From Eledone cirrhosa (taxonomy: Eukaryota), in NCBI GenBank assembly GCA_964016885.1, contig OZ024743.1, positions 243,040,001-243,104,000 on the forward strand: a DNA stretch of 64,000 nt. Reading direction: 5' to 3'. A program made the translations under genes and the position numbers. Under the pieces are notes generated by a model. The model was not told where the DNA came from and ran no database searches. It saw only the letters and a list, made by a program, of their open reading frames with translations. This document shows positions 12,001 through 61,972 of the stretch, one piece after another. Numbering within the stretch: the stretch's first letter is position 1; the number at the start of each line of letters is the position of its first letter.

Positions 12001-12175
12001 ACATCCTAGGATCTGTAATGACCTGTTCAACCCATCCTAGGGTGTGTAATGACCAGTTCAACCCATGCTAGTGTCTGTAATGACCTGTTCACCCCATCCT
12101 AGCGTCAGTAATGAGCTGTTCAAACTATGTTAGAGTCAGTAATGACATGTTCAACCCACGCTAGCGTCTGTAATG
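1..12175 (+). repeat. Higher-order tandem duplication, unit ~6.1-6.3 kb (~200 monomers), two copies (~1-5920 and ~6132-12175)
   Basis: The variant series beginning GTAATGACCTGGTCAACCCATCCCAGG at 1 recurs at 6132 (offset 6131). Rare variants such as CTCTTACGAC (~5013/~11331) and TATGTTAGAGTCAG (~5871/~12127) recur in the same order. Confidence 0.85.
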
Positions 12176-12289
12176 ACCTGTTAAACCCATGCTAGGGTCT
12201 GTAACGACCTGTTAAACCCACCTTAGTGTCTGTAATGACCTGTTCAACCCATCCTAGGGTCTGTAATGACCTGCTCAACCCATCCTAGG

Positions 12290-32600: not shown

Positions 32601-33195
32601 TGACCTGTTGAACCCACCCTACGGTGTGTAATCACCTGTTCAACGCATCCTACGGCTTGTAATGACCTGTTCAAACCACCCTGGGGTCTCTAATGATGTG
32701 TTCAACACATCCTAGGGCTTGTAATGACTTTTTTAACCCATCCTAGGGTCTGTAATGACCTGTTCAACCTATCCTAGTGTCCGTAATGACCTGTTCAACC
32801 CACCCTAGGGTCTGTAATGACCTGTTCAACCCATCGTAGGGTCTGTAATGCCCTGTTCAACCCACCCTAGGGTCTGTAATGATCTCTTCAACGTATCCTA
32901 GGATCTGTAATTATCTGTTCAGCCTATCCTAGGGTCTGTAATTACCTGTAAATCCTATCCTAGGGTCTGTTATGACCTGTTCAACCATTCCTAGGGTCTG
33001 TAACAACCTGTTCAACCAACCCTAGGGTCTGTAATGACCTGTTCAACCCATGCTAAGGACTGTAATGACCTCTTCAACCCACCCTAGGGTCTGTAATGAT
33101 CTGTTCAACGCATCCTAGGGTCAGTAATTATCTGTTCAACCTATCCTAGGGTCTGTAAATACCTGTTCAACCTATCCTAGGGTCTGTAATAACCT

Positions 33196-33745
33196 TGTAG
33201 TGACCTACATTCCGCGGGCTCACATACATTCTCTGTGCGTGATCTGGCTCAGTTAAGCCAATCAACGCCAGTAGAAGAGGTATCCCTACGCGCCTTGAGG
33301 AAGAAATTCCCCGCGAAGATTTGAAGAATCTCTCTCTTGTACCAGAAACTTCGAGCCAGCAACACGCATAATGTAACAGTGAGATATTGCACCCTAGCCT
33401 CGCCGGCTTTTCGGCGCAATGGCACATTCCCTTTGGTAACCTCTTTTTATCTGTAACTTCGACCATATAAGTTAACAAACATTGTTTGTGCTACATCAAA
33501 AATAAACTTACATTTCATCTCTAATTTCTGCTGTTGAAATCATTTTTACGTTACTCGTGTCTCAATAACATCTATAATCCATGCTGCTGGAATTGGCGAC
33601 CTGACGAAAGGAATGTTGTAAATACAAAGATGGTAAATAGATCGAGGGACCTTCCCTCACGTCTATGTCGACAAGATAATCCAACGAGGATAATATCACT
33701 TACCACACTGGCAACTAACGACCTTCAATCATCTACCCTGTTAAA
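33196..33745 (+). repeat. 5' LTR of family A element (550 bp; 578 bp if extended to the second end at 33773)
   Basis: TGTAG start; AATAAA at 33501-33506; differs from the 3' LTR by about 14 substitutions and one 3-bp indel. Confidence 0.9.
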
Positions 33746-33746
33746 G

Positions 33747-33788
33747 TGGTGACCATTCTACCACCCTGCTAAAGTGGTGACCGACGTA
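33747..33788 (+). promoter_or_regulatory. Two tandem primer-binding-site-like motifs resembling the complement of the tRNA-Trp 3' end
   Basis: TGGTGACCATTC at 33747 and TGGTGACCGACGTA at 33775, versus TGGTGACCCCGACGTGA, the complement of the metazoan tRNA-Trp 3' end. Each lies 1 nt after a CTG(T/C)TAAA motif. Confidence 0.7.
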
Positions 33789-35375
33789 AGAATTTAACGC
33801 AGCCCTTCTTTTTTATTCAGTTGAACTTTTATTGCCATGTTGCCAACCTTTTCGCAACTTGCGAAAATAAAAAATATTCCTTTTAAGATTTTTGAAAAAT
33901 TAGCAGTATTTCAAAAACTTTTCGCCACGAAGAAATTTCAAAATGGCTACCGACAAGTCCTGTCTACGATCAACAAAGACAGCAGCAGCAACGACAACAT
34001 TGTTTAGCCACTGACCAAAACAGGGAATAGCGAGTGGCAGCTTCATAGCCTTACCGACGCAAACCACAACACATCGGAAATTTCAGGACGGCTTGTAGCT
34101 TTACCGACGCAACCACCATACATACCTTCTGTCTCGTTACCACAGGGACTCGAGAAATTGAGACAGTAGTTTTCTCACCATTATGGCGTCAGACGTGGCT
34201 GCCATGTTTGGTGACTGCTACTCTACAGAAGATTCTTTGACTTTTCTTTAACAATAAGCAACACAACCGTGTGGCGGGACGGTAAAATGGCCACGAAAAC
34301 TCACAAAAACACCATACATCTAACCCCTAACGGCATTAACAAACTTCTTTTTCAGTTTTCAGATAGAACTAGTGTCTGTACACTGGTGATGTGTGAACTA
34401 TTTGACTTTGAAAAACTTTGAACTTATTGAGCAATTTCTCTGCTCCCTTAGATTGACTTTGAATTATCAGTTTGTTACATTCACATATTTCTTTGTAGAA
34501 TGCATTTACTTGTTTTGTGCTCTTTTGCTATTTGCTTGCTCATGGTTTTTGTTCATTCACATTCTTTGCTGTTTTACATGCCTGCATATGCACACATTTT
34601 TTTTATCACACATCAACATGTTGTTCTTGGTATATGTTCTTCAAACGTAATATTCTGCGAGTCCCTTTTCACCTGGTTGAGGTGCTGTCACATGCTAGCA
34701 GCTCACAGAGCTTAATCCACTGGATTCAAACAGGCACCGCAACACGAGAATACTAATTGCAGCTGAACTCAAACAGCTTCGCATCTCGTTGCACACTGAT
34801 CGTCCATGACGGCCATCCGTCTTGCTGTTTTTGCCCAACTCGCTGGGAAAGCAACAAATTGAACTGGACTTGTCAGCATTTCGGCCACTTCTGTGGATTC
34901 GCCCGAATTATGGAATTTACACTGCAACCCACCTACAGATTAAACTTTTTTTTTTTTTCTTTACAAAGCAACCAGCCATTTTTTCCTGGCTCCACAGCAC
35001 ATTCGACAATACATCTGGGGGCCATCATTTTCTCGCCAGCACTGGTAAACTACCATAATAGCTTCGTTCACCGCTACTGGTACAACGCTTACCATTAACA
35101 TTTAATGCAAGAACAGCAACTTCGCCCATGTCAGACTTTATCTGTTTTCTGGTAGGCCTTTGAGGGTCTCGTTTAAACTACAAAACAGCTAGTCATTTGA
35201 CAGCGACTCAACACGGCCCGTCGCGCCTAATTTTTTTTGTTCTTGCATGAATCTTTCTGCTCAATTATTTTTTCACTGATGTGCTCTTTCAGCATTTGTT
35301 CTTGCTGATTCAATAATATGTGGGTCCTTGGTTTCTTCGTTATCGATTTTCGGCTGAAAATCTGCTCGGAGATGA

Positions 35376-35928
35376 TGTAGTGACCTACATTCCGCGGGCT
35401 CACATACATTCTCTGTGCGTGATTTGGCTCAGTTCAGCCAATCAGCGCCAGTAGAAGAGGATGTATCCCTACGCGCTCTGAGGAAGAAATTCCCCGCGAA
35501 GATTTGAAGAATCTCTCTCTTGTACCAGAAACTTCGAGCCAGCAACACCCATAATGTAACGGTGAGATTTTGCACCCTAGCCTCACCGGCTTTTCGGCGC
35601 AATGGCACATTCCCTTTTGTAACCTCTTCTTATCTGTAACTTCAACCATATAAGTTAACAAACATTGTTTGTGCTACATCAAAAATAAACATACATTTCA
35701 TCTCTAATTTCTGCTGTTGAAATCATTTTTATGTTACTCGTGTCTCAATAACATCTATAATCCATGCTGCTGGAATTGGCGACCTGACGAAAGGAATGTT
35801 GTAAATACAAAGATGGTAAATAGATCGAGGGACCTTCCCTCACGTCTATGTCGACAAGATAATCCAACGAGGATAATATCACTTACCACACTGGCAACTA
35901 ACGACCTTCAATCATCTACCCTGTTAAA
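35376..35928 (+). repeat. 3' LTR of family A element (553 bp)
   Basis: Direct repeat of 33196-33745. Preceded only by a weak purine-rich GGAGATGA (possible degenerate polypurine tract) and followed by the ACCT duplication. Confidence 0.9.
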
Positions 35929-38907
35929 ACCTGTTCAACCAATCCTAGTGTATGTAATGACCAGTTCAACCTATCCTAGGGTCTGTACCTACCTGTTCAA
36001 CATATCCTAGGGTCTGCAACGACCTGTTCAACCCACACTAGGGTCTGAAACGACATGTACAACTAGCCTAAGGGTCTGTAACGACCTGTTCAACCCATCC
36101 TAGGGTCTGTAACAACATGTTCAACCCATCCTAGGGTCTGTAACGACCTGTTCGACCAATCCTAGGGTCTGTAATGACCTGGTCAACCTATCCTAGGGTC
36201 TGTACCGGCCTGTTCAACTAGCCCAAGGGTCTGTAATAACCTGGTCAACCCATCCTAGGGTATATAACGACCTGTTCGACCCATCCTAGGATCTTTAATG
36301 ACCTGTTCAACCTATCCTAGGGTCTGTACCGGCCTGTTCAACTAGCCCAAGGGTCTGTAATAACCTGTTCAACCCATCCTAGGGTATATAACGACCTGTT
36401 CGACCCATCCTAGGGTCTGTAATGACCTGTTCAACCCATCCTAGGGTATATAACGACCTGTTCGACCCATCCTAAGGTCTGTAATGACCTGTTCAACCTA
36501 TCCTAGGGTCAGTAATGACCTGTTCAACCCACCCTAGGGTCTGTAATCACCTGTTCAACCCACCCTAGGGTTTGTAATGACCTGTTCAAACCACCCTGGG
36601 GTCTGTAATGACCTTACCAACCATTTCTAGGGTCTGTAATGATGTGTTCAAACCATTCTAGGGTCTACAACGACCTGTTCAACCCATCCTAGGGTCTGTA
36701 ATGACCAGTTCAACCCATCATAGAGTTGTAATGACCGGTTAAACCTATCCTAGGGTCTGTAATGATCTGTTCAACCCATCCTAGGGTATGTAATGACCGG
36801 ATCAACCTAGCCTAGGGTCTATATAAAACCTGTTCAACCCATCCTAGGGTCTTTTACGACCTGTTCAACCCATCCTAATGTCTGTAATGACGTGTCCAAA
36901 TGACCCTAGGGTCTGTAATGACCTGTTAAACCCATCCTAGGAACTGTAATGAATTGTTCAACCCATCCTAAGGTCTGTAATGACCTGTTCAATCCATCCT
37001 AGGGTCTATAATGACCTGTTCAACCCATCCTTGTATCCGTTATGACCTCTTTAACCCATCTTAGTGTCTGTAACAAACTGTTCAACCCATTCTAGGGTCT
37101 GTAATGACCTGTTCAACCCACCGTAGGGTCTGTAATCACACGTTCAACCTATGCTATTATCTGTAATGAGCTGTTCAACCCATTCTAGGGTCTGTAACGA
37201 CATGTTCAACTCTTCCTAGGGTCTGTAACGACCTGTTCAACACACCCTGGGGTCTGTAATGACCTGTTCAACCCACCCTATGGTCTGTAATGACCTGTTC
37301 AACCCACCCTAGGGTCTGTAATGACCTGTTCAACCCATCCTAGGGTGTGTAATTAATTGTTCAACCTATCCTATTATCTGTAATGACCTGTTCAACCTAT
37401 CCTAGGGTCTTTAATGCCCTGTTCAACCAACCCTAGGGTCTGTAATGACCTTGTCAACCCATCCTCGGGTCTGTAACGACCTGTTCAACTCTTGATAGGG
37501 TCAGTAACGACCTGTTCAACACACCCTAGGGTCTGTAATGACCAGTTCAACCTATCCTTGTTTCTGTAAAGACCTGTTCAACCCATCCTAGCGTCTGTAA
37601 AGACCTATTTAACCCATCCTAGGGTCTGTAATGACCTGTTCAACCCACCCTAGAGTCTGTAATCATCTGTTCATCCTATCCTTGGGTCTGTAATGACCTG
37701 TTCAACCCATCCTTGTGTCTGTAAAGATCTGTTTAACCCATCCTAGGGTCTGTAACGACCTGTTCAACCCATCCTAGGGTCTGTAGTGACCTGTTCCAGC
37801 CCTGCTACGGTCCCTAATGACCTTTTCAACCCATCCTAGGGTCTGTAATGCCTTGTTCACCCTATCCTAGGGTTTGTAATGACCTGTTCAACCTATCCTA
37901 GGGTCTGTAACGACCTATTCAACTCGTCCTAGGGTCTGTAACGACCTGTTCAACACAACCTAGGGTCTGTAATGACAAGTTCAACCCACCCTAGAGTCTG
38001 TAATGACCTGTTCAATCCATCCTAGGGTCTCTAATGACCTGTTCACCCCATCCTAGGGTCTGTATTGACGTGTTCAATCCATCCTAGGGTCTGTAATTAC
38101 CTGTTCAACCCACCATAGGGCCTGTAATCACCTGTTCAACCTATCCTAGGCTCTTTAATGACCTGTTCAACCCACCCTAAGCTCTGTAATGACCTGTTCC
38201 ACCCATCCTAGGATCTGTAATGACCTGTTCCACCCATCCTAGGATCTGTAATGACTTGTTCAACCTATCCTAGGGTCTGTAATGTCTTGTTCAACCCATC
38301 CTAGGGTCAGTAATGACCTGTTCAACCCACACGAGTGTCTGTAATGACCTGTTCAACCTATCCTAGGGTTGTAATGACCTGGTCAAACCATCCTAGGGTC
38401 TATTATGACCTGTTCAACATTTCCTAGTGTCTGTAATAACCTGTTCACCCCATCCTAGGGTCTGTAACGACCTGTTCAACCCACCCTAGGGTCTGTAATG
38501 ACCTGTTCAACCTATCGTAGGGTCTGTAACGACCTGTTCAACCCATCCTAGGGTCTGTAATGACCTGGACAACCCATCCTAGTGTCTGTAATGACCTGTT
38601 CAACCAGCCCTAGGGTCTGAAATGACCTGTTCAACCCAGTCTAGGGTCTGTAATGACCTGTTCAACCTATCCTAGGTTCTGTAATGACCTGTGCAACCCA
38701 TCCTAGTGTCTGTAATAACCTGTTCACCCCATCCTAGGGTCTGTAACGACCTGTTCAACCCATCCTAGGGTCTGTAATGACCTTTCCAAACCATCCTAGG
38801 GTCTGTAATGACCTGTTCAACCCATCATAGGATCTGTAATGACCTGTTCAACCCATTCTAGGGTCTGTAATGACCAGTTTAACCCAACCTTGTGTCTGTA
38901 ACGAACT

Positions 38908-39257
38908 TGTAGCGGTTGTCTCCCTTGTTTGGGTTATCATCTAGACGGGAAGTAGAACCCTTTCTGCAACTTCCGGTCAGAACCCTATAAAACTAACAAC
39001 TTTAGGTTCTCACTCTCTCATTGCCTTTTCGGCACCAGGCCAAGAGCCTCTCATTTGGCCTGGCTGGCCTTAGCCAGGCTCCTCTGCCAGCCGCGTTTGC
39101 CTGGCAATCAAAACGGTAACTACTAACTTTGTTTCATTCTAACATCTATTTCTTTGACATGCTAACTATACTATCTACCATTGTTAATTAAATATATATC
39201 TACACAAACACAATGCCTCGTTTTGTTACATTCATACAACTCAGTATCTCTGCTATA
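38908..39257 (+). mobile_element. Solo LTR, family B (350 bp)
   Basis: Termini TGTAGC...GCTATA. AACT duplicated at 38904-38907 and 39258-39261. TATAAAA at 38986-38992 and ATTAAA at 39187-39192. Homologous to the reverse complements of 53099-53437 and 55644-55983. Confidence 0.85.
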
Positions 39258-39809
39258 AACTGTTCGACCCATTCTAGGGTCTGTAATGACCTGTTTAACC
39301 CACCCTAGGGTCTGTAATCACCTGTTCAACCTATCCTTGTGTCTGTAATGAGCTGTTCAACCCATTCTAGGGTCTGTAACGAACTATTATACACACACTA
39401 GGGTCTGTAATGACCTGTTCAACCTATCCTAGGGTGTGTAATGAATTGTTCAACGTATCCTAGTGTCTGTAATGACCTGTTCAACCTATCTTAGGGTCTC
39501 TAATGACCTGTTCAACCTATCCTAGGGTGTGTAATGACCCGTGCAACCCATCCTAGGGTCTGCAATAACCTGTTCAACCTATCCTAGAGTCTGTAACGAC
39601 CTGTTCAACCCATCCTAGTGTCTGTAATGACCTGTTCAACTTATCCTAGGGTCTTTAATGACATTTTCAACGCATCCTAGGGTCTGTAACAACATGTTCA
39701 ACACATCCTAGGCTCTGTAATGACCTGTTCAATCCACCCTAGAGTCTGTAATCACCTTTTCAACCCATCCTAGAGTCTGTAATCACCTTTTCAACCTATC
39801 CTAGGGTCT

Positions 39810-40105
39810 GTAACAACATGTTCAACCTATCCTAGGGTCTATAACAACATGTTCAACATATCCTAGGGTCTGTAACAACATGTTCAACCCATCCTAGGGT
39901 CTGTAATCATCTTTTCAACTTATCCTAGGGTCTGTAACAACATGTTCAACCTATCCTAGGGTCTGTAACAACATGTTCAACCTATCCTAGGGTCTGTAAC
40001 AACATGTTCAACCTATCCTAGGGTCTGTAACAACATGTTCAACCTATCCTAGGGTCTGTAACAACATGTTCAACCTATCCTAGGGTCTGTAACAACATGT
40101 TCAAC
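39810..40105 (+). repeat. Locally homogenised run of a monomer variant (AACAACATGTTCAACCTATCCTAGGGTCTGT), ~9 copies
   Basis: Consecutive monomers share the AACAACATG variant, which is rare elsewhere in the array. Confidence 0.85.
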
Positions 40106-42824
40106 CCATCCTAGGGTCTGTAATCACCTTTTCAACTTATCCTAGGGTCTGTAATGACCCGTGCAACCCATCCTAGGGTCTGTAATGACCTGTTCAACCT
40201 ATCCTAGAGTCTGTAACGACCTTTTCAACCCATCCTAGGGTTTGTTATGACCTGTTCAACCCATCCTAGGGTTTGTAATGACCTTTCCAAACCACCCTAG
40301 GGTCTGTAATGACCTGGTCAACCCATCATAGGGTCTGTAATGATCTGTTCAACCCATCATAGGGTCTGTAATGACCTATTCATCCTATCCAAAGGTTTGT
40401 AATGACCAGTTCAAGCCATCCTAGGGTCTGTAACGACCTGTTCAACCTATCCTAGGGTCTTTAAAGACCCGTTTAACCCACCCTATGGTCTGTAATGACC
40501 TGTTCAACCTATCCTAGAGTCTGTAATGACCTGTTCAACCCATCCTAGGGTCTGTCATGACATGTTTAACCCACCCTAGGGTCTGTAATGACCTGTTCAA
40601 CCTATCCTAGGGTCTCTAATGACCTGTTCAACCCATCCTAGCATCTGTAATCACCTGTTTAACCTGTCCTAGGGTTTTTAATGACTCGTTCAATCCACCC
40701 TATGGTCTTAAATGACCTGTTCAACCCACCCTAGGGTCTGTAATCACCTTTTCAACCCATCCTAGGGTCTGTAATGACCTGTTCAACCTATCCTAGGGTC
40801 TGTAACAACATGTTCAACACATCCTAGGGTCAGTAACGACCTGTTCAACCCATCCTAGGGTCTGTAATGACCTGTTCAATCCACTCTAGGGTCTGTAATC
40901 ACCTGTTCAACCCATCCTAGCGTCTGTAATGACCTGCTCAATCGATCCTATGGTCTATAATGACCTGTCCAATCCATCCTTGTGTCTGTAAAGACCTGTT
41001 TAACCCATCCTAGGGTCTGTAACGACCTGTTCAACCCATCCTAGGGTCTGTAATGACCTGTTCCACCCATGCTAGGGTCCCAAATGACCTGTTCAACCCA
41101 TCCTAGTGTCTGTAATGACCTTTTCAACATATCCTAGGGTCTGTAATGACCTGTTCACTCTATCCTAGGGTTTGTAATGACCTGCTCAATCCATCCTAGG
41201 GTCTGTAATAACCTGTTCAACCCATCCTTGTGTCTGTTATAACCTGTTTATCCCATCCTAGGGTCTGTAACGACCTGTTCAACCCATCCTAGGGTTCCTA
41301 ATGACCTGTTCCACCCATCTTAGGGTCTGTAATAAATGGTTCAACCTCTCCTAGGGTCTTTAATGACCTGTTCAACCTATCCTAGGGTCAGTAATGACCT
41401 GTTTAACCCATCCTAGTGTCTGTTACATCCTGTTCCACTCTTACTAGGGACTGTAACGACCTGTTTAACACACCCTAGGGTCTGTAATGACCTGTTCAAC
41501 CCACACTAGGGTCTGTAATGACCTGTTCAACCCACCATAGGGTCTGTAATGTACTGTTCAACCGATCCTAGTGTCTGTAATGACATGTTCAACTTATCCT
41601 AGGGTCTCTAATGACCTGTTCACCCCATCCTAGGGTCTGTATTGAGGTGTTCAATCCATCCTAGGGTCTGTAATTACCTGTTCAACCCACCCTAGGGTCT
41701 GTAATTACCTGTTCAACCCACACGAGGGTCTGTAATGACCTGTTCAACCCATCCTAGTGTCTGTAATGTCCTGTGCCACCCATCCTAGAGTCTGTAATGA
41801 CCTGTTCCACCGATGCTAGGGTCTGTAACAACATGTTCAACACATTCTAGGGTCTGTAATGACCTGTTCAATCCACCCTTTGTCTGTAATCACCTGTTCA
41901 ACCTATCCTAGGGTCTGTAATGACCCCTTCAACCCACCCTACAGTCTGTAATGACCTGTTCCACCCATCTTAGGGTCTGTAATAAATGGTTCAACCTCTC
42001 CTAGGGTTTTTAATGACCTGTTCAACCTATCCTAGGGTTAGTAATGACCTGTTCAGCCCATCCTAGGGTCTGTATTGACCTGTTCATTCCATCCTAGGGT
42101 CTGTATTGACCTGTTCATTCCATCCTAGGGTCTGTAAAGACCTGTTCAATCCATCCTAGGGTCTGTAATGACCTGTTCAACCCATCCTTGTGTCAGTAAT
42201 GACCTGTTTAACCCCTCCTAGTGTCTGTAACGACCAATTCAACCCATCCTAGGCTCTGTAATGACTTGTTCCACCCATCGTAGGGTACCTAAAGACCTGT
42301 TGAGCCCATCCTAGTGTCTGTAATAACCTGTTCAACCTATCCTAAGGTCTTTAATGACCTGTTCAACTCTTCCTAGGGTCTATAACGACCTGTTCAACAC
42401 ACCGTAGGGCCTGTTATGACCGGTTTAACCCATTCTAAGGTCTGTAATGACCTGTTCAACCCACCCTCAGATCAGTAATCACCTGTTCACCCTATCCTAG
42501 GGTCTGTAATGACCTGTTCAACCCACCCTAGGGTTTGTAATGACCTTTTCAACCCATCGTAGGGTCTGGAATGACCTGTTCAACGTATCCTAGGATCTGT
42601 AATGACTTGTTCAACCTATCCTAGGGTCTGTAATTACCTGTTCAACCTATCCTAGGGTCTGTAACAACCCCATCAACCCATCCTAGGGTCTGTTATGACC
42701 TGTTCAACCCACCCTAGTGTCTGTAATGCCCTGTTCAACCCACCTAGGGTCTGTTATGACCTGTTCAATCTATCCTAGGGTCTGTATTGACCTGTTCAAT
42801 CCATCCTAGGGTCTGTAATGACCT

Positions 42825-43396
42825 TTTAGCAGTAGCAAAGTTGAATAGTCGCCACTTTAACAGGGTAGATGATTGAAGGTCGTTAGTTGCCAGTGTGGTA
42901 AGTGATAGTATCCTCGTTGGATTATCTTGTCGACATAGACGTGAGGGAATGTCCCTCGATCTATTTACCATCTTTGTATTTACAACATTCCTTTCGTCAG
43001 GTCGCCAATTCCAGCAGCATGGATTATAGATGTTATTGAGACACGAGTAGCATAATAATGATTTCATCAGCAGAAATTAGAGATGAAATGTATGTTTATT
43101 TTTGATGTAGCACAAACAATGTTTCTTAACTTATATGGTCGAAGTTACAGATAAAAAGAGGTTACCAAAGGGAATGTGCCATTGTGCCGGCGAGGCTAGG
43201 GGTATAATCTCACCATTACATTATGGGTGTTGCTGGCTCGAAGTTCCTGATATAAGAGAGAGATTCTTCAAATCTTCGCGGGGAATTTCTTCCTCAAGGC
43301 GCGTAGGGATACCTCTTCTACTGGCGTTGATTGGCTTAACTGAGCCAGATCACGCACAGAGAATGTATGTGAGCCCGCGGAATGTAGGTCACTACA
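42825..43396 (-). mobile_element. Solo LTR, family A (572 bp), inverted relative to the 33196 element
   Basis: Reverse complement of 33196-33773, ending ...GGTCACTACA at 43396. ACCT duplicated at 42821-42824 and 43397-43400. Confidence 0.92.
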
Positions 43397-46329: not shown

Positions 46330-49300
46330 GGTCTGTAATGACCTGTTCAAACTATCCTAGGGTCTGTAATGACCTGTTCAACCCATCCTAGGGTCTGTAA
46401 TGACCTGTTCAACCTATCCTAGGATCTGTAATGGTCTGTGCCGCCCATCCTAGGGTCTGTAACAAGATGTTCAACACATTCTAGGGTCTGTAACGATCTG
46501 TTCAACCCATCCTAGGGTCTGTATTGACCTCTTCATCACACCCTAGGGTCTGTAATGACCTGTTCAACCCACCCTAGGGTCTGTAATCACCTGTTCAACC
46601 TATCCTAAAGTCTGTAATGACCTGTTCAACCCACCCTAGAGTCTGTAATCACCTTTTCAACCTATCCAAGGGTTTGTAATGACCTGTTCAACCCACACTA
46701 GGTTCTGTAATGACAATTTCAACGTATCCTAGGGTCTGTAATCTCCTGTTCAACCCATGCTAGGGTCTGTTATGACTTTTTCAACCTATTCTAGAGTCTG
46801 TAATGTCCTGTTCAACCCATCCTAGGGTCTGTAATGACCTGTTGCACCCATCCTAGGGTCTGTAATGAACTGTTCAACCTATCCTAGGGTCTGTAATGAA
46901 CTGTTCAACCTATCCTAGGGTCTGTAATGAACTGTTCAACTTCTCCTAGGGTCTGTAATGACCTGTTCAACCCATCCTAAGGACTGTAATGACCTGTTCA
47001 ACCCAGCCTTGTGTCTGTAATGACCTGTTTAACCCCTTCTAGGTTCTGTAACGACCTGTTCACCACATCCTAGGGTCTGTATTGACCTGTTCACCACATC
47101 CTAGGGTCTGTGTTGCCGTGTTCAATCCATCCTAGGGTCTGTAATGACCTGTTCAACCCACCCTAGGGTCTTTAATGACCTGTTTAACCTATCCTAGGGT
47201 CTGTAATGTCTTGTTCAACCAATGCTAGGGTCTGTAATGATTTGTTCAAACTATCCTAGGGTATGTAATGTCCTGTTCACCCATCCTAGGGTGTGTAATG
47301 ACCTGTTGCACCCATCCTAGTGTCTGTAATGAACTGTTCAACCCATCCTAGGGTCTGTAATGACCTGTTCAACCCATCCTAGGGTCTGTAATGACCTGTT
47401 CAACCCACCCTACGGTCTGTAACGACCTGTTCAACCCATCCTAGGGTCTGTAATTGACTGTTTAACCTATCCTAGTGTCTGTAATGAACTGGTCAACCTA
47501 TCCTAGGGACTCTAATGATCTGTTTACCCCATCCTAGGGTCTGTATTGACTTGTTCAACCCAACCTAGGGTCTGTAATGACCTGTTCATCCCATCCTAGT
47601 ATCTGTAATGTCCTGTGACACCCATCCTAGAGTCTGTAATGATCTGTTCTTCACATGCTAGGGAGTGTAACAGCATCTTCAACACATTCTAGTGTCTGTA
47701 ACGACCTGTTCAATCCACCCTAGTGACTGTAATGACCTGTTCAACCTATCTTAGGTTCTGTAATGACCTGTTCAACCCATCGTAGGGTCTGTAATGACTT
47801 CTTTCACCTTCCTAGGGTCTGTAATGAACTGTTCAACCTATCCTAGGTTCTTTAATGACCTGTTCAACCCACCCTAGGGTCTGTAATGACCTTTTCAACC
47901 CATCCTAGTCTCTGTAATGACGTTTTCAACCCATCCTAGGGTCTGTAATGACCTGTTCAACCCATTCTAGAGTCTGTAATGTGCTGTTCAACCCACCCTA
48001 ATGTCTGTAATCACCTGTTCAACCAATCCTAGGGTCTGTATTGACCTGTTCAATCTATCCTATGGTCTGTAATGACCGGTTCAACCCACCCTAGGGTGTG
48101 TAATGACCTTTTCAACCTATCCTAGGGTCTGTAATGACCTGTTCAACCTATCCTAGAGTTTGTAATGAAATGTTCAACCTCTCCTAGGGTCTGTAATGAC
48201 CTGTTCAACCTATCCCAGGGTCTGTAATGACGTGTTCAACCTATCCCAGGGTCTGTAATGACCTGTTCAACCTATCCCAGGGTCTGTAATGACCTGTTCA
48301 ACCTATCCCAGGGTCTGTAATGACCTGTTCAACCTATCCCAGGGTCTGTAATGACGTGTTCAACCTATCCCAGGGTCTGTAATGACCTGTTCAACCTATC
48401 CCAGGGTCTGTAATGACCTGTTCAACCTATCCCAGGATCTGTAATGACCTGTTCAACCTATCCCAGGGTCTGTAATGACGTGTTCAACCTATCCCAGGGT
48501 CTGTAATGACCTGTTCAACCTATCCCAGGGTCTGTAATGACCTGTTCAACCTATCCCAGGGTCTATAATGACCTGTTCAACCTATCCCAGGGTCTGTAAT
48601 GACCTGTTCAACCTATCCCAGGGTCTGTAATGACGTGTTCAACCTATCCCAGGGTCTGTAATGACCTGTTCAACCTATCCCAGGGTCTGTAATGACCTGT
48701 TCAACCTATCCCAGGGTCTGTAATGACCTGTTCAACCTATCCCAGGGTCTGTAATGACGTGTTCAACCTATCCCAGGGTCTGTAATGACCTGTTCAACCT
48801 ATCCCAGGGTCTGTAATGACCTGTTCAACCTATCCCAGGGTCTGTAATGACCTGTTCAAACTATCCTAGGGTCTGTAATGACCTGTTCAACCCATCCTAG
48901 GGTCTGTAATGACCTGTTCAACCTATCCTAGGATCTGTAATGGTCTGTGCCGCCCATCCTAGGGTCTGTAACAAGATGTTCAACACATTCTAGGGTCTGT
49001 AACGATCTGTTCAACCCATCCTAGGGTCTGTATTGACCTCTTCATCCCACCCTAGGGTCTGTAATGACCTGTTCAACCCACCCTAGGGTCTGTAATCACC
49101 TGTTCAACCTATCCTAAAGTCTGTAATGTCCTGTTCAACCTATCCTAGGGTCTGTAATGACCTGTTCAACCCACCCTAGAGTCTGTAATCACCTTTTCAA
49201 CCTATCCAAGGGTTTGTAATGACCTGTTCAACCCACACTAGGTTCTGTAATGACAATTTCAACGTATCCTAGGGTCTGTAATCTCCTGTTCAACCCATGC

Positions 49301-51410
49301 TAGGGTCTGTTATGACTTTTTCAACCTATTCTAGAGTCTGTAATGTCCTGTTCAACCCATCCTAGGGTCTGTAATGACCTGTTGCACCCATCCTAGGGTC
49401 TGTAATGAACTGTTCAACCTATCCTAGGGTCTGTAATGAACTGTTCAACCTATCCTAGGGTCTGTAATGAACTGTTCAACTTCTCCTAGGGTCTGTAATG
49501 ACCTGTTCAACCCATCCTAAGGACTGTAATGACCTGTTCAACCCAGCCTTGTGTCTGTAATGACCTGTTTAACCCCTTCTAGGTTCTGTAACGACCTGTT
49601 CACCACATCCTAGGGTCTGTATTGACCTGTTCACCACATCCTAGGGTCTGTGTTGCCGTGTTCAATCCATCCTAGGGTCTGTAATGACCTGTTCAACCCA
49701 CCCTAGGGTCTTTAATGACCTGTTTAACCTATCCTAGGGTCTGTAATGTCTTGTTCAACCAATGCTAGGGTCTGTAATGATTTGTTCAAACTATCCTAGG
49801 GTATGTAATGTCCTGTTCACCCATCCTAGGGTCTGTAATGACCTGTTGCACCCATCCTAGTGTCTGTAATGAACTGTTCAACCCATCCTAGGGTCTGTAA
49901 TGACCTGTTCAACCCATCCTAGGGTCTGTAATGACCTGTTCAACCCACCCTACGGTCTGTAACGACCTGTTCAACCCATCCTAGGGTCTGTAATTGACTG
50001 TTTAACCTATCCTAGTGTCTGTAATGAACTGGTCAACCTATCCTAGGGACTCTAATGATCTGTTTACCCCATCCTAGGGTCTGTATTGACTTGTTCAACC
50101 CAACCTAGGGTCTGTAATGACCTGTTCATCCCATCCTAGTATCTGTAATGTCCTGTGACACCCATCCTAGAGTCTGTAATGATCTGTTCTTCACATGCTA
50201 GGGAGTGTAACAGCATCTTCAACACATTCTAGTGTCTGTAACGACCTGTTCAATCCACCCTAGTGACTGTAATGACCTGTTCAACCTATCTTAGGTTCTG
50301 TAATGACCTGTTCAACCCATCGTAGGGTCTGTAATGACTTGTTTCACCTTCCTAGGGTCTGTAATGAACTGTTCAACCTATCCTAGGTTCTTTAATGACC
50401 TGTTCAACCCACCCTAGGGTCTGTAATGACCTTTTCAACCCATCCTAGTCTCTGTAATGACGTTTTCAACCCATCCTAGGGTCTGTAATGACCTGTTCAA
50501 CCCATTCTAGAGTCTGTAATGTGCTGTTCAACCCACCCTAATGTCTGTAATCACCTGTTCAACCAATCCTAGGGTCTGTATTGACCTGTTCAATCTATCC
50601 TATGGTCTGTAATGACCGGTTCAACCCACCCTAGGGTGTGTAATGACCTTTTCAACCTATCCTAGGGTCTGTAATGACCTGTTCAACCTATCCTAGAGTT
50701 TGTAATGAACTGTTCAACCTCTCCTAGGGTCTGTAATGACCTGTTCAACCTATCCCAGGGTCTGTAATGACGTGTTCAACCTATCCCAGGGTCTGTAATG
50801 ACCTGTTCAACCTATCCCAGGGTCTGTAATGACCTGTTCAACCTATCCCAGGGTCTGTAATGACCTGTTCAACCTATCCCAGGGTCTGTAATGACGTGTT
50901 CAACCTATCCCAGGGTCTGTAATGACCTGTTCAACCTATCCCAGGGTCTGTAATGACCTGTTCAACCTATCCCAGGATCTGTAATGACCTGTTCAACCTA
51001 TCCCAGGGTCTGTAATGACGTGTTCAACCTATCCCAGGGTCTGTAATGACCTGTTCAACCTATCCCAGGGTCTGTAATGACCTGTTCAACCTATCCCAGG
51101 GTCTGTAATGACCTGTTCAACCTATCCCAGGGTCTGTAATGACCTGTTCAACCTATCCCAGGGTCTGTAATGACGTGTTCAACCTATCCCAGGGTCTGTA
51201 ATGACCTGTTCAACCTATCCCAGGGTCTGTAATGACCTGTTCAACCTATCCCAGGGTCTGTAATGACCTGTTCAACCTATCCCAGGGTTTGTAATGACGT
51301 GTTCAACCTATCCCAGGGTCTGTAATGACCTGTTCAACCTATCCCAGGGTCTGTAATGACCTGTTCAACCTATCCCAGGGTCTGTAATGACCTGTTCAAC
51401 CTATCCCAGG
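46330..51410 (+). repeat. Higher-order tandem duplication, unit ~2.5 kb (~81-82 monomers), two near-identical copies; an older partial copy lies at ~45170-46330
   Basis: ATGGTCTGTGCCGCCC at 46431 and 48940 (offset 2509). The rare variant GGGAGTGTAACAGCATC occurs at 47661 and 50201. A diverged ATGGTCTATGCCGCCC occurs at ~45223. Confidence 0.9.
48210..48840 (+). repeat. Homogeneous run (~20 copies) of variant monomer CCTATCCCAGGGTCTGTAATGACCTGTTCAA; second copy at ~50750-51410
   Basis: Every monomer carries CCCAGG in place of CCTAGG; a GACGTG variant recurs at 48229, 48353, 48477, 48632 and 48756. Confidence 0.92.
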
Positions 51411-53098
51411 ATCTGTAATGACTTGTTCAACCTATCCAAGGGTCTGTAATGTCCTATTCAACCCATCTTAGGGTCTGTAACGACCTGTTCACCCCATCAT
51501 AGGGTCTGTATTGACCTGTTCAATCCATCCTAGAGTCTGTAATTACCTGTTCAACCCATCCTAGGGTCTGTAATGACCTGTTCAACCTATCCTAGGATCT
51601 GTAATGACTTGTTCAACCCATCCTAGGGTTTGTAATGTCTTGTTCAACCCATGCTAGGGTCTGTAATAACTTTTTCAAGCTATCCTAGGGTCTGTAATGT
51701 CCTGTTCAGCCTATCCTAGGGTCTGTAATGACCTGTTGAACCCATCCTAGGGTCTATAATGTCCTGTGCAACCCATCCTAGAGTCTGTAATGACCTGTTC
51801 CGCCCATGCTAGGGTCTGTAACAACATGTTCAACACATTCTGGGGTCTGTAACGACCTGTTCAACCCATCCTAGGCTCTGTAATGACCTGTTCAATCCAT
51901 CCAAGGGTCTGTAATGAACAGTTCAACCCATCCTTGTGTCTGTTATGACCTTTTTAACCCATCCTAGGGTCTGTAACTACCTGTTCAACTCACGCTAGGG
52001 TCTGTAATGATCTGCTCAACTCACCCTAGGATCTGTAATGACCGGTTCAACCCATCCTAGGGTGTGCAATGGACTGTTCAACCTATCCTAGTGTATGTAA
52101 TGACCTGTTCACCCTATCCTAGGGTCTCTAATGACCTGTTCAATCCATCCTAGGGTCTGTAATGACCTGTTCAACGTATCCTAGGATCTGTAATGACTTG
52201 TTCAACCAATCCTAGGGTCTGTAATGACCTGTTCAACCCACACTAGGGTCTGTAATGACTTTTTCAACCCATCCTAGGTTCTTCAATGACCTGTTCAAAC
52301 CACCCTAGGGTATGTAATGACCTGTTCAACCCACCCTAGGGTCTGTAATTGCCTTTTCAACCCACCCAGGGGTATATAATGACCTGTTCAACCCACCCTA
52401 GGGTCTGTAATTGCCTTTTCAACCCACGCTAGGGTCTGTAATGACTTGTTCAACCTATTCTAGGTTCTGTAATGTTCTGTTCAACCCATCCTAGGGTCCC
52501 TAATGACCTGTTCAACCCATCCTAGTGTTTGTAATGACCTGTTCAACCCACCCTAGGGTCTGTAATGACTTGTTCAACCCTTCCTTGGATGAGTAATTAA
52601 CTGTTCAACCTATCCTAGTGTCTGTAATGACCTGTTCAACCTATCCTAGGGTCTCTAATGACCTGTTCAACCTATCCTAGGGTCTCTAATGACCTGTTCA
52701 ATCCATCCTAGGGTCTGTAATGACCTGTTCAACCTATCCTAGGGTCTCTAATGACCTGTTCAATCCATCCTAGGGTCTGTAATGACCTGTTCAACCTCTC
52801 CTAGGGTCTGTAATGACCTGTTCAACCCACACGAGGGTCTGTAATGACTTTTTCAACCCATCCTAGAGTCTGTAATGACCTGTTCAACCCACACTAGGGT
52901 CTGTACTCACTTGTTCAAGTTATCCTAGGGTCTGTAATGTCCTTTTCAATCCATGCTAGGGTCTGTAATGACTTGTTCAACCTATCCTACGGTCTGTAAT
53001 ATCCTGTTCAACCTCTCCTAGGGTCTGTAATGTCCTGTTCAACCCATCCTAGGATCTGTAATGACCTGTTCAACCCACACGATGGTCTGTAATGACCT

Positions 53099-53437
53099 TA
53101 TAGGGAAGATACTGGGTTGTATGAACGTAACAAGGAGGCTTTGTTTGTGTGTATAATATTTAATTAACAATCATGGATATATATAGAACAGTATAGTTGA
53201 ACATGTCAAAGAAATAGATGATAGAATGAAACAAAGTTAGTAGTTACCGTTTTGATTGCCAGGCAAAGCGAGACGCCTGGTGAAGGCCAGGTGCCGGAAG
53301 GGCAAATGAGAAGGAGAGAGCCGAAGGCTATTCATTTTATAGGGCTCTGCCGGAAGTTACAGAAAGGGTTCTTCTTCCCGTCTAGATGTTGTTAATCTAT
53401 TGGGATTGTGAGTCACAACAAGGTGACAAACGCTACA
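53099..53437 (-). mobile_element. Solo LTR, family B (339 bp)
   Basis: Termini TATAGG...CGCTACA (reverse complement TGTAGCG...CCTATA). ACCT duplicated at 53095-53098 and 53438-53441. Shares blocks such as AAAGTTAGTAGTTACCGTTTTGATTGCCAGGCAAA with the reverse complement of 38908-39257. Confidence 0.88.
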
Positions 53438-55643
53438 ACCTTTTCAACCCATCCTAGAGTCTGTAATGACCTGTTCAACGTATCCTAGGAACTGTAATGA
53501 CTTGTTCAACCTATCCTAGGGTCTGTAATGTCCTGTTCAACCCATGCTAGGGTCTGCAATGACTTGTTCAACCGATCCTAGGTTCTGTAATGTTCTGTTC
53601 AACCCATCCTAGGGTCCCTAATGACCTGTTCAACCCATCCTAGTGTCTGTAATGACCTATTCAACCCACCCTCGGCTCTGTCATTACCTGTTCAACCCAC
53701 CCTAGGGTCTGTAATGACTTGTTCAACCTATCCTAGGGTCTCTAATGACCTGTTCAATCCATCCTAGGGTCTCTAATGACCTGTTCAACCCACACGAGGG
53801 TCTGTAATGACTTTTTCAACCTATCCTAGGGTCTGTAATGTCCTTTTCAACCCATGCTAGGGTCTGTAATGAACTGTTCAACCTATCCTAGGGTTTGTAA
53901 TGACCTGTTCAACCCACACTAGGGTCTGTAATGACCTGTTCAACCCATCCTAGAGTCTGTAATGAACTGTTCAACCTATCCTAGGGTTTGTAATGACCTG
54001 TTCAACCCACACTAGGGTCTGTAATGACCTGTTCAACTCATCCTAGGATCTGTAATGACCTGTTCAACCTATCCTAGGGTCTGTAATGTCCTGTTCAACC
54101 CATACGAGGGTCTGTAATGACTTGTTCAACCTATCCTAGTGTCTGTATTGACCTGTTCAATCCATCCTAGGGTCTGCACTGACCTATTCAACCCCTCGTA
54201 GGGTCTGTAATGACATGTTTAACCCTTCCTAGGGTCTGTAACGACCGTCTCAACCCACTCTAGGGTCTGTAATGACCGGTTCATCCCATCCTAGGATCTG
54301 TAATGACCTGTTCAACCCATCCTAGAGTCTATAATGACTTGTTCAACCTATACTAGGTTCTGTAATGTCCTGTTCAACCCATACTAGGGTCCCTAATGAC
54401 CTGTTCAACCCACCCTAGGGTCTGTAATGACTTGTTCAACCCTTCCTAGGATGAGTAATTAACTGTTCAACCTATCCTAGTGTTTGTAATGACCTGTTCA
54501 AGCTATCCTAGCGTCTGTAATGACCTGTTCAACCCATCCTAGGGTCTGTAATGACCTGTTCAACCCATCCTAGGGTCTGTAATGACCTGTTCAACCCACA
54601 CAAGGGTCTGTAATGACCTGTTCAACCTATCCTAGGGTCTGTAATGTCCTGTTCAACCCATCCTAGGGTCTGTATTGAGGTGTTCAATCCATCCTAGGGT
54701 CTGTAATGTCCTGTGCAACCCATCCTAGAGTCTGTAATGACCTGTTCCGCCCATGCTAGGGTCTGTAACAATATGTTCAACCCATCCTAGGCTCTGTAAT
54801 GACCTGTTCAACCCATCCGAGGCTCTGTAATGACCTGTTCAATCCATCCAAGTGTCTGTAATGACCTTTTTAACCCATCCTAGGGTCTGTAACTACCTGT
54901 TCAACTCACCCTAGGGTCTGTAATGACCTGCTCAACCCACCCTAGGGTCTGTAGTGACCGGTTCAACCCATCCTAGGGTGTGCAATGGACTGTTCAACCT
55001 ATCCTAGGGTCTGTAATGACCTGTTCAACCCACACTAGGGTCTGTAATGACTTTTTCAACCCATCCTAGGTTCTTCAATGACCTGTTCAAACCACCCTAG
55101 GGTATGTAATGACCTGTTCAACCCACCCTAGGGTCTGTAATTGCCTTTTCAACCCACCCTGGGGTATATAATGACCTGTTCAACCCACCCTAGGGTCTGT
55201 AATTGACTTTTCAACCCCTAGCTAGGGTCTGTAATGACCGGTTCAACCCATTCTAGGCTCTGTAATGACCTGTTCAACCCATGCTAGTGTCTGTAATGAC
55301 TTGTTCAACCTATCCTAGGTTCTGTAATGTTCTGTTCAACCCATCCTAGGGTCCCTAATGAGCTGTTCAACCCATGCTAGGGTCTGTAATGACCTGTTCA
55401 ACCCACCCTAGGGTCTGTCATGACCTGTTCAACCCACCCTAGGGTCTGTAATGACTTGTTCAACCCTTCCTTGGATGAGTAATTAACTGTTCAACCTATC
55501 CTAGTGTCTGTAATTACCTGTCCAACCTATCTTAGGGTCTGTAATATCCTGTTCAACCTCTCTTAGGGTCTGTAATGTCCTGTTCAACCCATCCTAGGAT
55601 CTGTAATGACCTGTTCAACCCACACGAGGGTCTGTAATGACCT

Positions 55644-55983
55644 TATAGGGAAGATACTGGGTTGTATGAACGTAACAAGGAGGCTTTGTTTGTGTGTATA
55701 ATATTTAATTAACAATCATGGATATATATAGAACAGTATAGTTGAACATGTCAAAGAAATAGATGATAGAATGAAACAAAGTTAGTAGTTACCGTTTTGA
55801 TTGCCAGGCAAAGCGAGACGCCTGGTGAAGGCCAGGCGCCGGAAGGGCAAATGAGAGGGAGAGAGCCGAAGGCTATTCGTTTTATAGGGCTCTGCCGGAA
55901 GTTACAGAAAGGGTTCTACTTCCCGTCTAGATGTTGTTAATCTATTGGGGTTGTGAGTCACAACAAGGGAGACAACCGCTACA
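55644..55983 (-). mobile_element. Solo LTR, family B (340 bp); segmental duplicate of the 53099 copy
   Basis: About 7-8 differences from 53099-53437. ACCT at 55640-55643 and 55984-55987. Both sides share the same flanking monomer variants. Confidence 0.88.
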
Positions 55984-58900
55984 ACCTTTTCAACCCATCC
56001 TAGAGTCTGTAATGACCTGTTCAACGTATCCTAGGAACTGTAATGACTTGTTCAACCTATCCTAGGGTCTGTAATGTCCTTTTCAATCCATGCTAGGGTC
56101 TGTAATGAATTGTACAACCTATCCTAGGGTCGGTAATGTCCTGTTCAACCTCTCCTAGGGTCTGTAATGACCTGTTCAACATCTCATAGGGTCTGTAGTG
56201 ACCTGTTCAACCCACACTAGGGTCTGTAATGACCTGTTCAACGTATCCTAGGATCGGTAATGTCCTGTTCAACCTCTCCTAGGGTCTGTAATGACCTGTT
56301 CAACCCACACTAGGGTCTGTAATGACGTGTTCAACGTATCCTAGGATCTGTAATGACTGGTTCAACCTATCCTAGGATCTGTAATGTCCTGTTCAACCCA
56401 TGCTAGGGTCTGTAATGACTTGTTCAACCTATCCTAGGATCTGTAATGTCCTGTTCAATCCATCCTAGGATCTGTAATGACCTGTTCAACCTATCCTAGG
56501 GTCTGTTATGACATGTTCAACGTATCCTAGGAACTGTAATGACTGGTTCAACCTATCCTAGGATCTGTAATGTCCTGTTCAATCCATCCTAGGATCTGTA
56601 ATGACCTGTTCAACCTATCCTAGGGTCTGTTATGACATGTTCAACGTATCCTAGGAACTGTAATGACTTGTTCAACCTATCCTAGGGTCTGTAATGTCCT
56701 TTTCAACACATGCTAGGGTCTGTAATGAACTTTTCAACCTATCCTAGGGTCTGTAATGACCTGTTCAACCCACACTAGGGTCTGTAATGACCTGTTCAAA
56801 GTATCCTAGGATCTGTAATGTCATGTTCAACCTCTCCTAGGGTCTGTAATGACCTGTTCAACCCACACTAGGGTCTGTAATGACCTGTTCAACTTATCCT
56901 AGGATGTGTAATGACTAGTTCAACCTATCCTAGGGACTGTAATGTCCTGCTCAACCCATGCTAGGGTCTGTAATGACTTGTTCAACCTATCCTAGTGTCT
57001 GTATTGACCTGTTCAATACATCCTAGGGTCTGTAATGACCTGTTCAACCCACACGAGGGTCTGTAATGACTTTTTCAACCCATCCTAGAGTCTGTAATGA
57101 CTTGTTCAACCCTTCCTAGGATGAGTAATTAACTGTTCAACCTATCCTAGTGTCTGTAATGACGTGTTCAACCTATCCTAGGGTATCTAATGACTTTTTC
57201 AACCGACACTAGTGTCTGTAATGACTTGTTCAACCTATCCTAGGGTCTGTAATATCCTGTTCAACCTCTCCTAGGGTCTGTAATGTCCTGTTCAACCCAT
57301 CCTAGGATCTGTAATGACCTGTTCAACCCACACTAGGGTCTGTAATGACGTGTTCAACGTATCCTAGGATCTGTAATGACTTGTTCAACCTATCCTAGGA
57401 TCTGTATTGTCCTGTTCAACCCATGCTAGGGTCTGTAATGACTTGTTCAACCTATCCTAGAGTCTGTAATGACCTGTTAGACATATCCTAGGGTCTGTAA
57501 TGACTTGTTCAACCTATCCTAGGATCTGTATTGTCCTGTTCAACCCATGCTAGGGTCTGTAATGACCTGTTCAACCTATCCTAGAGTCTGTAATGACCTG
57601 TTAGACGTATCCTAGGGTCTGTAATGACCTGTTCAACCCACACTAGGGTCTGTAATGACCTGTTCAAAGTATCCTAGGATCTGTAATGTCCTGTTCAACC
57701 TCTCCTAGGGTCTGTAATGACCTGTTCAACCCGCACTAGGGTCTGTAATGACCTGTTCAACTTATCCTAGGATCTGTAATGACATGTTCAACCTATCCTA
57801 GGGTCTGTAATGTCCTGTTCAACCCATGCTAGGGTCTGTAATGACTTGTTCAACCTATCCTAGTGTCTGTATTGACCTGATCAACCCACCCTAGGGTATG
57901 TACTGACCTATTCAACCCCTCGTAGGGTCTGTAATGACCTGTTTAACCCTTCCTAGGGTCTGTAACGACCGGTTCAACCCACTCTAGGGTATGTAATGAC
58001 CTGTTCAACCCATCCAAGGGTATGTAATGACCGGTTCATCCCATCCTAGGATCTGTAATGACCTGTTCAACCCATCCTAGAGTCTATAATGACTTATTCA
58101 ACCTATACTAGGTTCTGTAATGTCCTGTTCAACCCATACTAGGGTCCCTAATGACCTGTTCAACCCACCCTAGTGTCTGTAATGACCTATTCAACCCACC
58201 CTAGGGACAGTCATGACCTGTTCAACCCACCCTAGGGTCTGTAACGACCGGTTCAACCCACTCTAGGGTATGTAATGACCTGTTCAACCCATCCTAGTGT
58301 CTGTAATGACCTATTCAACCCACCCTACGGACGGTCATGACCTGTTCAACCCACCCTAGGGTCTGTAACGACCGGTTCAACCCACTCTAGGGTATGTAAT
58401 GACCTGTTCAACCCATCCTAGTGTCTGTAATGACCTATTCAACCCACCCTAGGGACGGTCATGACCTGTTCAACCCACCCTAGGGTCTGTAATGACTTGT
58501 TCAACCCTTCTTGGGTGAGTAATTAACTGTTCAACCTATCCTAGTGTTTGTAATGACCTGTTCAACCTATCCTAGAGTCTCTAATGACCTGTTCAATCCA
58601 CCCTAGTGACTGTAATGACCTGTTCAATCTATCCTAGGATCTGTAATGACCAGTTCAACCCATCCTTGTGTCTGTTATGATATTTTTAACCCATCGTAGG
58701 GTCTTTAATGACCTGTTCAACCTATCCTCGGGTCTGTAACGACCTGTTCAACCCACCCTAGGGTCTCTAATGACCTGTTCAACACATCCTAGGATCTGTA
58801 ATGACCTGTTCCTCCCATCCTATGGTCTGTAATGACCTGTTCAACACGTCCTAGGGTGTGTAATGAACTGTTCAAGCTATTCTAGGGTCTGTAATGACCT

Positions 58901-61616: not shown

Positions 61617-61750
61617 ACACACATACAAACATATAAACACACATATACACACAAACACACACATAAACACACATATACACACAAACATACATATAAACAC
61701 ACACACACAAATATATACAAAGGCATACCAGCACAAATACATATATATAA
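61617..61750. repeat. Degenerate (CA)n/(AT)n microsatellite
   Basis: ACACACATACAAACATATAAACACACATATACAC... low-complexity tract. Confidence 0.9.
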
Positions 61751-61762
61751 ATGCACACTTAC

Positions 61763-61956
61763 GGCGGTGTGTGGATTGGCAGTATCGGTAGAGGGTCGGA
61801 CGCCATGCTTTCCAGCATAGTTACGTCCCTTTACGATCTGAGTTCAAATCCCGCCGAGGTTGACTTTGCCTTTCATCCTTACGGGGTCGATAAAATAAAG
61901 TACCAGTAATGCACTGGGTAATTTGCTGGCCTTGTGCCAAAAGTAGAAACAATTAT
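61763..61956 (+). mobile_element. tRNA-derived SINE
   Basis: GGCGG (61763) pairs with CCGCC (61851) like an acceptor stem. A-box-like TGGCAGTATCGG at 61777 and B-box GAGTTCAAATCC at 61840. Body TTGACTTTGCCTTTCATCCTTACGGGGTCGATAAAATAAAGTACC resembles a conserved invertebrate SINE central domain. AT-rich tail. Confidence 0.82.
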
Positions 61957-61972
61957 ATATATATACATATAT

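Follow-up and report, generated by a model that had tools for sequence, protein, structure and literature searches.

The closest described relatives of the elements considered here belong to the CsRn1 lineage of Gypsy retrotransposons. In the accessible sections of one study (PMC2582038), the CsRn1 primer-binding site (PBS) is given as TGGTGA[G/C]CCCG[T/A], complementary to tRNA-Trp, and target preference is reported as not seen in 14 mosquito families of the CsRn1 type. Integration into satellite DNA has been described for other enzymes. Tal1 targets satellite through the integrase C-terminus, according to the portions of PMC11735389 and PMC10984392 available to us, and the K258R mutant of HIV-1 integrase produces base-identical hot spots at two preferred alpha-satellite positions, the cause of which is unexplained in the available part of PMC8933506. 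Here we consider a 64,000-nucleotide stretch of the Eledone cirrhosa genome (the window), in which two element families with long terminal repeats (LTRs), A and B, entered a 31-bp satellite at one register of its monomer. We put at about 0.72 the probability that this shared register reflects a weak integrase bias amplified by the satellite, and not satellite targeting.

The satellite array occupies positions 1..61579 of the window on the + strand, the right two thirds of a single locus of ~90.5 kb (G000:C4:243011049-243101579) with some 2,800 monomers. An exact 27-mer of the satellite has 344 matches in the 3.0-Gb assembly, on one strand only, of which the window accounts for 189 and the 29 kb upstream for 154. 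As 343 of the 344 lie at one locus, further arrays of this satellite elsewhere in the assembly were rejected. A looser 16-mer, common to the 31-bp satellite and a 38-bp array on C1, has 1,591 matches, and 1,561 of these fall inside those two arrays. The leftmost ~58 kb of the array has been recently duplicated and is free of insertions; repeated 60-mers make up 94-100% at array positions 3-57 kb and 0-4% at 60-69 kb. Every insertion is carried by the older, little-duplicated part (31000..61579 of the window, limits approximate), and all five interruptions of the array in the window come from families A and B. The flanking non-array DNA (171 kb) and the 29 kb of array upstream contain no A or B LTR.

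Family A is represented by a two-LTR, non-coding element, A1 (33196..35928, +), with ends TGT...AAA and the target-site duplication (TSD) ACCT (left copy 33192..33195, right copy 35929-35932, +). Its 5' LTR (33196-33773) and 3' LTR (35376-35928), both on the + strand, are 97.5% identical. Between them lie a degenerate PBS of the CsRn1 (tRNA-Trp) type (33775..33790, +) and, on the 5' side of the 3' LTR, a polypurine-tract region (35357..35375, +) of a kind common to families A, B and C. A second PBS-like copy is present 28 bp upstream of the A1 PBS. The remaining insertions are solo LTRs. B1 (38908..39257, +; ends TGT...ATA; TSD AACT at 38904-38907 and 39258-39261) represents a diverged subfamily of B, 87% identical to B2. 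A2 lies at 42825..43396 (-; TSD ACCT at 42821-42824 and 43397-43400) and B2 at 53099..53437 (-; TSD ACCT at 53095-53098 and 53438-53441), while B3 (55644..55983, -; TSD ACCT) is a later within-array duplicate of B2, with 97.9% identity and flanks identical at 61/62 and 62/62 bases. All five have a perfect 4-bp TSD at register 6 of the monomer, with junctions checked by script. Flank identity in the other nine insertion pairs is 49-55/62 bases, no more than that of unrelated monomers, and consequently the four integrations are independent. The first-pass annotation, which had counted four independent insertions and one duplicate at the same 4 bp, was correct in this respect. The coincidence is indeed beyond what uniform registers would give, but the annotation's chance estimate of 3e-5 (1/31 cubed) rested on the wrong null, as the families' own motif gives ~0.02.

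Read from their sequences, A and B are best classed as putative non-coding derivatives of CsRn1-clade Gypsy elements. Their LTRs are alike at the termini alone, and homology beyond the termini was rejected (best blastn E 0.16). Exact LTR termini number at least 1,767 for A and at least 1,285 for B genome-wide, which are lower bounds because the terminus patterns demand a non-C base 16 upstream, and 674 for a third family, C. These correspond to ~1,360 events for family A and ~780 for family B, with facing A+/A- pairs that share one TSD scored as a single event. Neither pol nor gag could be matched anywhere in the window, and the copies there are non-coding. Coding elements were traced through a reverse transcriptase fragment within a B copy, and most of them bear the B-related LTR of family C. 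One coding copy, L234, has a B-type 5' LTR, a Gag with CX2HX9CX3C in ORF1, and a Pol of 1,051 codons in which Pfam recognized RVP (below cut-off), RVT_1, RT_RNaseH, Integrase_H2C2 and rve. A GPY motif was read in the L234 Pol translation, env was absent, and no chromodomain was hit by Pfam at E 0.1, a check that is blind to single-residue determinants in the integrase C-terminus such as those of Tal1.

The internal region of B is 85-96% identical to family C and L234, and that of A in the window had no BLAST match to either. LTRs of the A type are found flanking a gag (L105) and an integrase (L097) of their own, and this integrase is 81% identical to the one in L234. Consequently, the single shared integrase that had been proposed for both families is not needed. 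The assignment to the CsRn1 lineage with a tRNA-Trp-type PBS has held up better, with LTR ends, PBS, TSD length and Gag motif all in agreement. The LTRs of A and C end in AAA and those of B in ATA. Against the printed CsRn1 PBS, which served as the reference in place of the host tRNA gene, the first 11 bases of family C match, A1 has a 2-base deletion, and B has one or two substitutions.

The target sites outside the window come from loci reached through the termini listed first (100 of A and B, 30 of C), together with 60 loci of best hits and 20 coding copies. A matching 4-bp repeat was found at an LTR-like end for 130 of 193 outer LTR starts, and the other 63 provided the left side only. The sites have a palindromic motif, WTR[RRYY]YAW, of ~2.5 bits, with an additional preference for A/T at 12 bases out, where C has a frequency of only 0.06. 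Half-site frequencies are A 0.66 and T 0.28 at -3, T 0.59 at -2, and A 0.43 and G 0.36 at -1, followed by RRYY in the TSD. Over 323 half-sites, significance ranges from p 1e-5 to 1e-44 across positions -3 to T4; families A, B and C, with 147, 127 and 49 half-sites, show the same motif, and cross-validated AUC for the motif models was 0.92-0.94. A symmetric integrase preference, first suggested from the window, is confirmed by a palindromic motif at 130 TSD-confirmed sites elsewhere. The weak dyad noted in the satellite site itself holds in part. The genome-wide motif agrees with it in the A at -3, the T at +3 and the A..T edges, but position 5 carries no signal (p=0.93). In the literature outside subscription papers, Repbase and supplements, PMC3286476 among it, no target motif turned up in print for elements of the CsRn1 clade, the one relevant remark being that no preference was seen; this analysis supplies such a motif.

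To find how far the motif accounts for register 6, every array position was scored with six motif matrices and the 31 registers were compared. Five matrices put register 6 in second place among the 31 and the remaining one put it third, its share being 0.15-0.21. First place goes to the register 8 bases on (TSD AACC), which has a share of 0.35-0.42 in the six matrices and 0.2-0.5 overall and was used by none of the four events. Under the motif, the probability that all four fall in one register is 0.018-0.034 (bootstrap 0.009-0.050), and over 12 regression models it is 0.002-0.07; for all four at register 6 specifically, it is about 1e-4 to 2e-3. With the array sites left out of training, register 6 ranked 3, 3 and 4, and the regression models placed it at 2-4. 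Nearest-neighbour counts gave a tie between register 6 and the top register (6.2 vs 6.0; 5.4 vs 5.9). First place was reached by register 6 in no model (rank 2-4), and neither wider flanks nor dinucleotide terms nor regression raised it there. A null of uniform registers was rejected, with a log-likelihood of -54 against -27 for the motif over 15 scored insertions, in a run that placed the first site of the 38-bp array at a neighbouring register, the reported registers being those of a separate mapping. Of the five orders of magnitude in 3e-5, the motif takes away about three, without singling out register 6.

Other tandem arrays provide a further view of the same preference. A matrix with a flank of 3, trained on 120 sites outside arrays, was applied to held-out insertions in seven other arrays with monomers of 18, 21, 45, 45, 46, 52 and 81 bp. 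The register used ranked first for 7/8 insertions, where the TSD was confirmed in 5/8 and the other three were placed from the 5' junction alone, and where two A copies in the 18-bp array with flanks in common were counted once. The single miss was in the 81-mer, at rank 8. With a 13-base flank, four of the eight ranked first, three second and one third. The matrix itself would lead to an expectation of 2.7 rank-first insertions in these arrays, against the 7 observed. Since the top rank is followed in other arrays more often than predicted, the misfit of register 6 becomes sharper. The A/B register coincidence recurs in unrelated sequence: in a 45-bp array at C1:32.6 Mb, one and the same 4 bp were used by a B(-) and an A(+) copy. 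The 38-bp array, at C1:204.4 Mb, has a 16-bp motif in common with the 31-bp satellite, and its three B events lie at registers 19, 21 and 18 (ranks 3, 1 and 7 of 38), one of them at the position equivalent to register 6. This array also contains a triplicated short B LTR. Genome-wide, the shared-register pattern has 8 matches, of which 6 are true junctions (five in the array in the window and one in the 38-bp array); the two extra matches, an ordinary site and another 31-32-bp repeat with no LTR, were rejected. The exact anchor-to-A junction occurs once in the genome.

While both families have entered this array, most of their copies are elsewhere. Only 3/1,767 A termini and 2/1,285 B termini lie in the 31-bp array, as do 3 of the best 40 A matches and 2 of the best 40 B matches. 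Among the 130 TSD-confirmed sites, 10 are in tandem repeats of period >6. At least 250 bp of repeats of this kind lay upstream of 8/98 pattern-led loci, compared with 8/20 4-kb windows (Fisher p=0.001), the background being evenly spaced windows on one arm (C1:3-88.5 Mb only) and not region-matched. In a hand count over C1:7.5-39 Mb, 7/26 A and B events were in long arrays, and 8/8 windows there were arrays. On C1, long arrays with many unrelated monomers are frequent. With the motif present at non-satellite sites and no general enrichment in satellites, the description of these families as satellite-targeted fails at the family level. The first-pass annotation had named exactly this pair of findings as what would reduce its proposal to ordinary integrase sequence bias.

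Local density is a separate matter. Four events in ~26 kb, compared with 0.7-1.15 per Mb, amount to ~100 times the genome mean, in a window that was picked for looking odd among very many arrays. The Poisson probability for a 23-kb window is 2e-8, and a negative-binomial fit to the clustering on C1 predicts 0.16 such 23-kb windows genome-wide, or 2.2 of 90 kb. The motif predicts an enrichment of the array of 1-2.4-fold only. Clusters also occur outside satellites: C1:40.9-41.0 Mb, where there is no long array, has 3 events within 14 kb and 5 within 130 kb.

Several explanations other than integrase bias could be offered. If the integrase sought the 31-bp satellite, as those of centrophilic plant elements do, the local cluster, taken alone, would be in keeping with it. 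However, the handful of termini in the array, the one exact anchor-to-A junction genome-wide, the six true shared-register junctions and the depletion of both families in arrays on C1 all speak against such targeting, which we consider very improbable; this assembly refutes it unless the satellite is for the most part collapsed or missing there. It is similarly hard to believe that a single junction was copied or converted within the array in place of four integrations. Copying does occur, as seen in B2/B3 and in the triplicated short B LTR of the 38-bp array, and identical TSDs copied by the host, on one strand, are known in satellite arrays, at least from the accessible part of one report (10.64898/2026.09.17.752431). 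Nevertheless, the junctions involve two families, each in both orientations, in differing monomer variants (49-55/62), and the AACT TSD differs in step with its own monomer. Host copying of one junction accounts for B3 only. Somewhat less remote, though still improbable, is that retention or assembly inflated the density, with insertion-bearing stretches of a longer array preferentially kept and the register being that of the motif. Every event is in the non-duplicated end of the array and assembly gaps adjoin such elements, as this would lead one to expect. However, the old part is unique, with 0-4% of 60-mers repeated (60-69 kb), and therefore does not collapse.

The strongest competitor is a hot spot produced by locus tethering or chromatin, in which a protein or a positioned nucleosome would draw CsRn1 intasomes and expose one register; a monomer of 31 bp comes to roughly three helical turns. 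The ~100-fold density, the choice of the second-best register in 4/4 events, the origin of all five array interruptions from A and B, the three B events within 4 bases of one another in the motif-sharing 38-bp array, and an A/T preference 12 bases from the TSD, which hints at wider contacts, are all consistent with it. Even so, clusters form outside satellites, the three events of the 38-bp array are at three registers, Pfam detects neither a chromodomain nor any further domain in the integrase, and the family C elements, which encode an enzyme, are missing from the array. We therefore regard a hot spot of this type as unlikely. Slightly less likely again is its more specific form, in which the 31-bp and 38-bp arrays are both tethered hot spots where a host factor or a nucleosome phase of three helical turns would draw two integrases ~100-fold and fix the second-ranked register. 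Such a tethered or phased hot spot keeps a minor share of the probability because of the density and the register used.

Ordinary integrase bias remains the likely explanation because both families are found genome-wide and have a common weak, symmetric preference. The independence of the events, the dispersal of the families, the motif in A, B and C, and the prediction of registers in other satellites are demonstrated. Use of the second-best register in 4/4 events and the high local density are not fully explained by the motif. In the mechanism we propose, enzymes would be supplied in trans by coding relatives, for B from the family C lineage and for A from its own sister lineage, and a symmetric intasome would accept either orientation. 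The satellite would act as a single target present in some 2,800 copies, with one or two good sites per monomer. Because it repeats a single target, any advantage of one site in sequence or shape recurs everywhere, and effects at the level of the site do not average out, being identical in all monomers. Effects that a position matrix misses, such as DNA shape or nucleosome setting, may then tip the choice between near-equal best registers. Insertions would persist only in the part of the array spared recent duplication and turnover. Of the earlier interpretation, the independent integrations, the CsRn1 affinity, the PBS type and the symmetric preference survive; targeting does not, and the single integrase is not needed.

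These results call for caution, in that identical TSDs and registers in a satellite show neither targeting nor copying, since a weak integrase motif focuses insertions on just one or two of a monomer's registers, whatever the monomer. If the residual is real, a genome with many different long arrays could separate sequence from chromatin in the choice of LTR targets, because every array presents a single target in thousands of copies. If a hot spot were the true explanation, animal LTR retrotransposons would here have a natural hot spot in a satellite, exact to the base. For HIV-1 integrase, hot spots at particular registers of satellite monomers have already been published.

Compared with known systems, the elements are closest to the CsRn1 lineage (CsRn1, PwRn1, AgCR1-14), with which they share, as far as the available text of PMC2582038 and PMC3630058 describes it, a 4-bp TSD, TGT...AAA/ATA ends, a tRNA-Trp-type PBS, a Gag with CX2HX9CX3C, a PR-RT-RH-IN order with GPY and no chromodomain or env, and gag and pol overlapping in different frames. 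Unlike those elements, the copies in the window are non-coding derivatives and solo LTRs, and the 130 sites show a clear palindromic motif where PMC2582038, in its accessible sections, reports no target preference. Drosophila LTR elements also have an AT-rich palindrome reaching about three bases past a 4-bp TSD and common to related families, as given in the portion of PMC3276498 open to us. They belong to a different clade, and here the RRYY core is more degenerate with most of the information at -3 to -1, in a motif drawn from fixed copies of one assembly and not from new insertions. With HIV-1 K258R, as presented in the accessible part of that study, the likeness is in independent integrations at the same base of different monomer copies. 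However, that mutant is redirected to satellite more than tenfold, while A and B are dispersed and their insertions are natural, germ-line events. Tal1, ATHILA and CRM are similar in leaving LTR elements and solo LTRs in satellite arrays, from which turnover purges them (available portions of PMC11735389 and PMC10984392). The same portions describe them as concentrated in centromeric arrays through an integrase C-terminus or chromodomain. True satellite targeting predicts such a concentration of copies in the array, whereas more than 99% of A and B termini lie outside the 31-bp satellite.

The 3' ends of family A LTRs (window 33725-33790; genomic loci L003-L030) carry one or two units, each composed of a PBS-like 8-mer, a hypervariable spacer of 10-25 bases, and the LTR end signal. 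Solo LTRs of this family range from 308 to 738 bp in length. In A1, the two-LTR family A element at window 33196-35928 (plus strand), the 3' LTR (35376-35928) ends at the first end signal, 28 bp before the point that the 5' LTR (33196-33773) reaches, and the PBS-like copy lying upstream is a closer match to the primer site than it is in most copies. Taken together, these two features would fit priming from the upstream site. A double PBS resembling that of family A is also found in family B.

In a B element at locus L187 (5666-9506), the interior contains an inverted RT-RNase H piece, with a 443-codon frame, adjoining an integrase tail, and the LTRs and TSD are intact. Two A-family insertions (L146 and L154) have two LTRs facing each other, each insertion being bounded by a single 4-bp duplication.

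Compared with an A-type integrase as query, the integrases genome-wide fall into at least three groups, which share 92-100%, 85-90%, and 80-84% identity with it, and many of them have open frames of more than 1,000 codons. LTR pairs of family C, the coding family related to B, are up to 99.8% identical, so the clade has been active recently.

Insertions are also present in other satellites. A 61-kb array of a 45-bp monomer (G000:C1:32610697-32672105) contains B (minus strand) and A (plus strand) insertions at the same 4 bp, with the A copy continuing into an assembly gap. Across C1:7.5-39 Mb, all eight evenly spaced 4-kb windows (L371-L378) consisted entirely of tandem repeat, no two of them sharing a period (18, 44, 46, 62, 21, 33, 35, and 22 bp), and this end of the chromosome appears to be a mosaic of long satellites unrelated to one another. 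Within the window, the 31-bp array stops at 61579; in the remaining sequence (61580-64000) it is followed by simple repeats and one short interspersed repeat, and on the minus strand there is a non-LTR reverse transcriptase (62787-63998) that is broken and presumably of the RTE-like class.

A 38-bp satellite array on C1 (G000:C1:204376336-204443908; L182-L189) holds three independent B insertions. This satellite ends in a putative tRNA-like head from a common SINE, and the 38-bp monomer may derive from that head. The satellite has a 16-bp motif in common with the 31-bp satellite, a likeness that does not establish homology.
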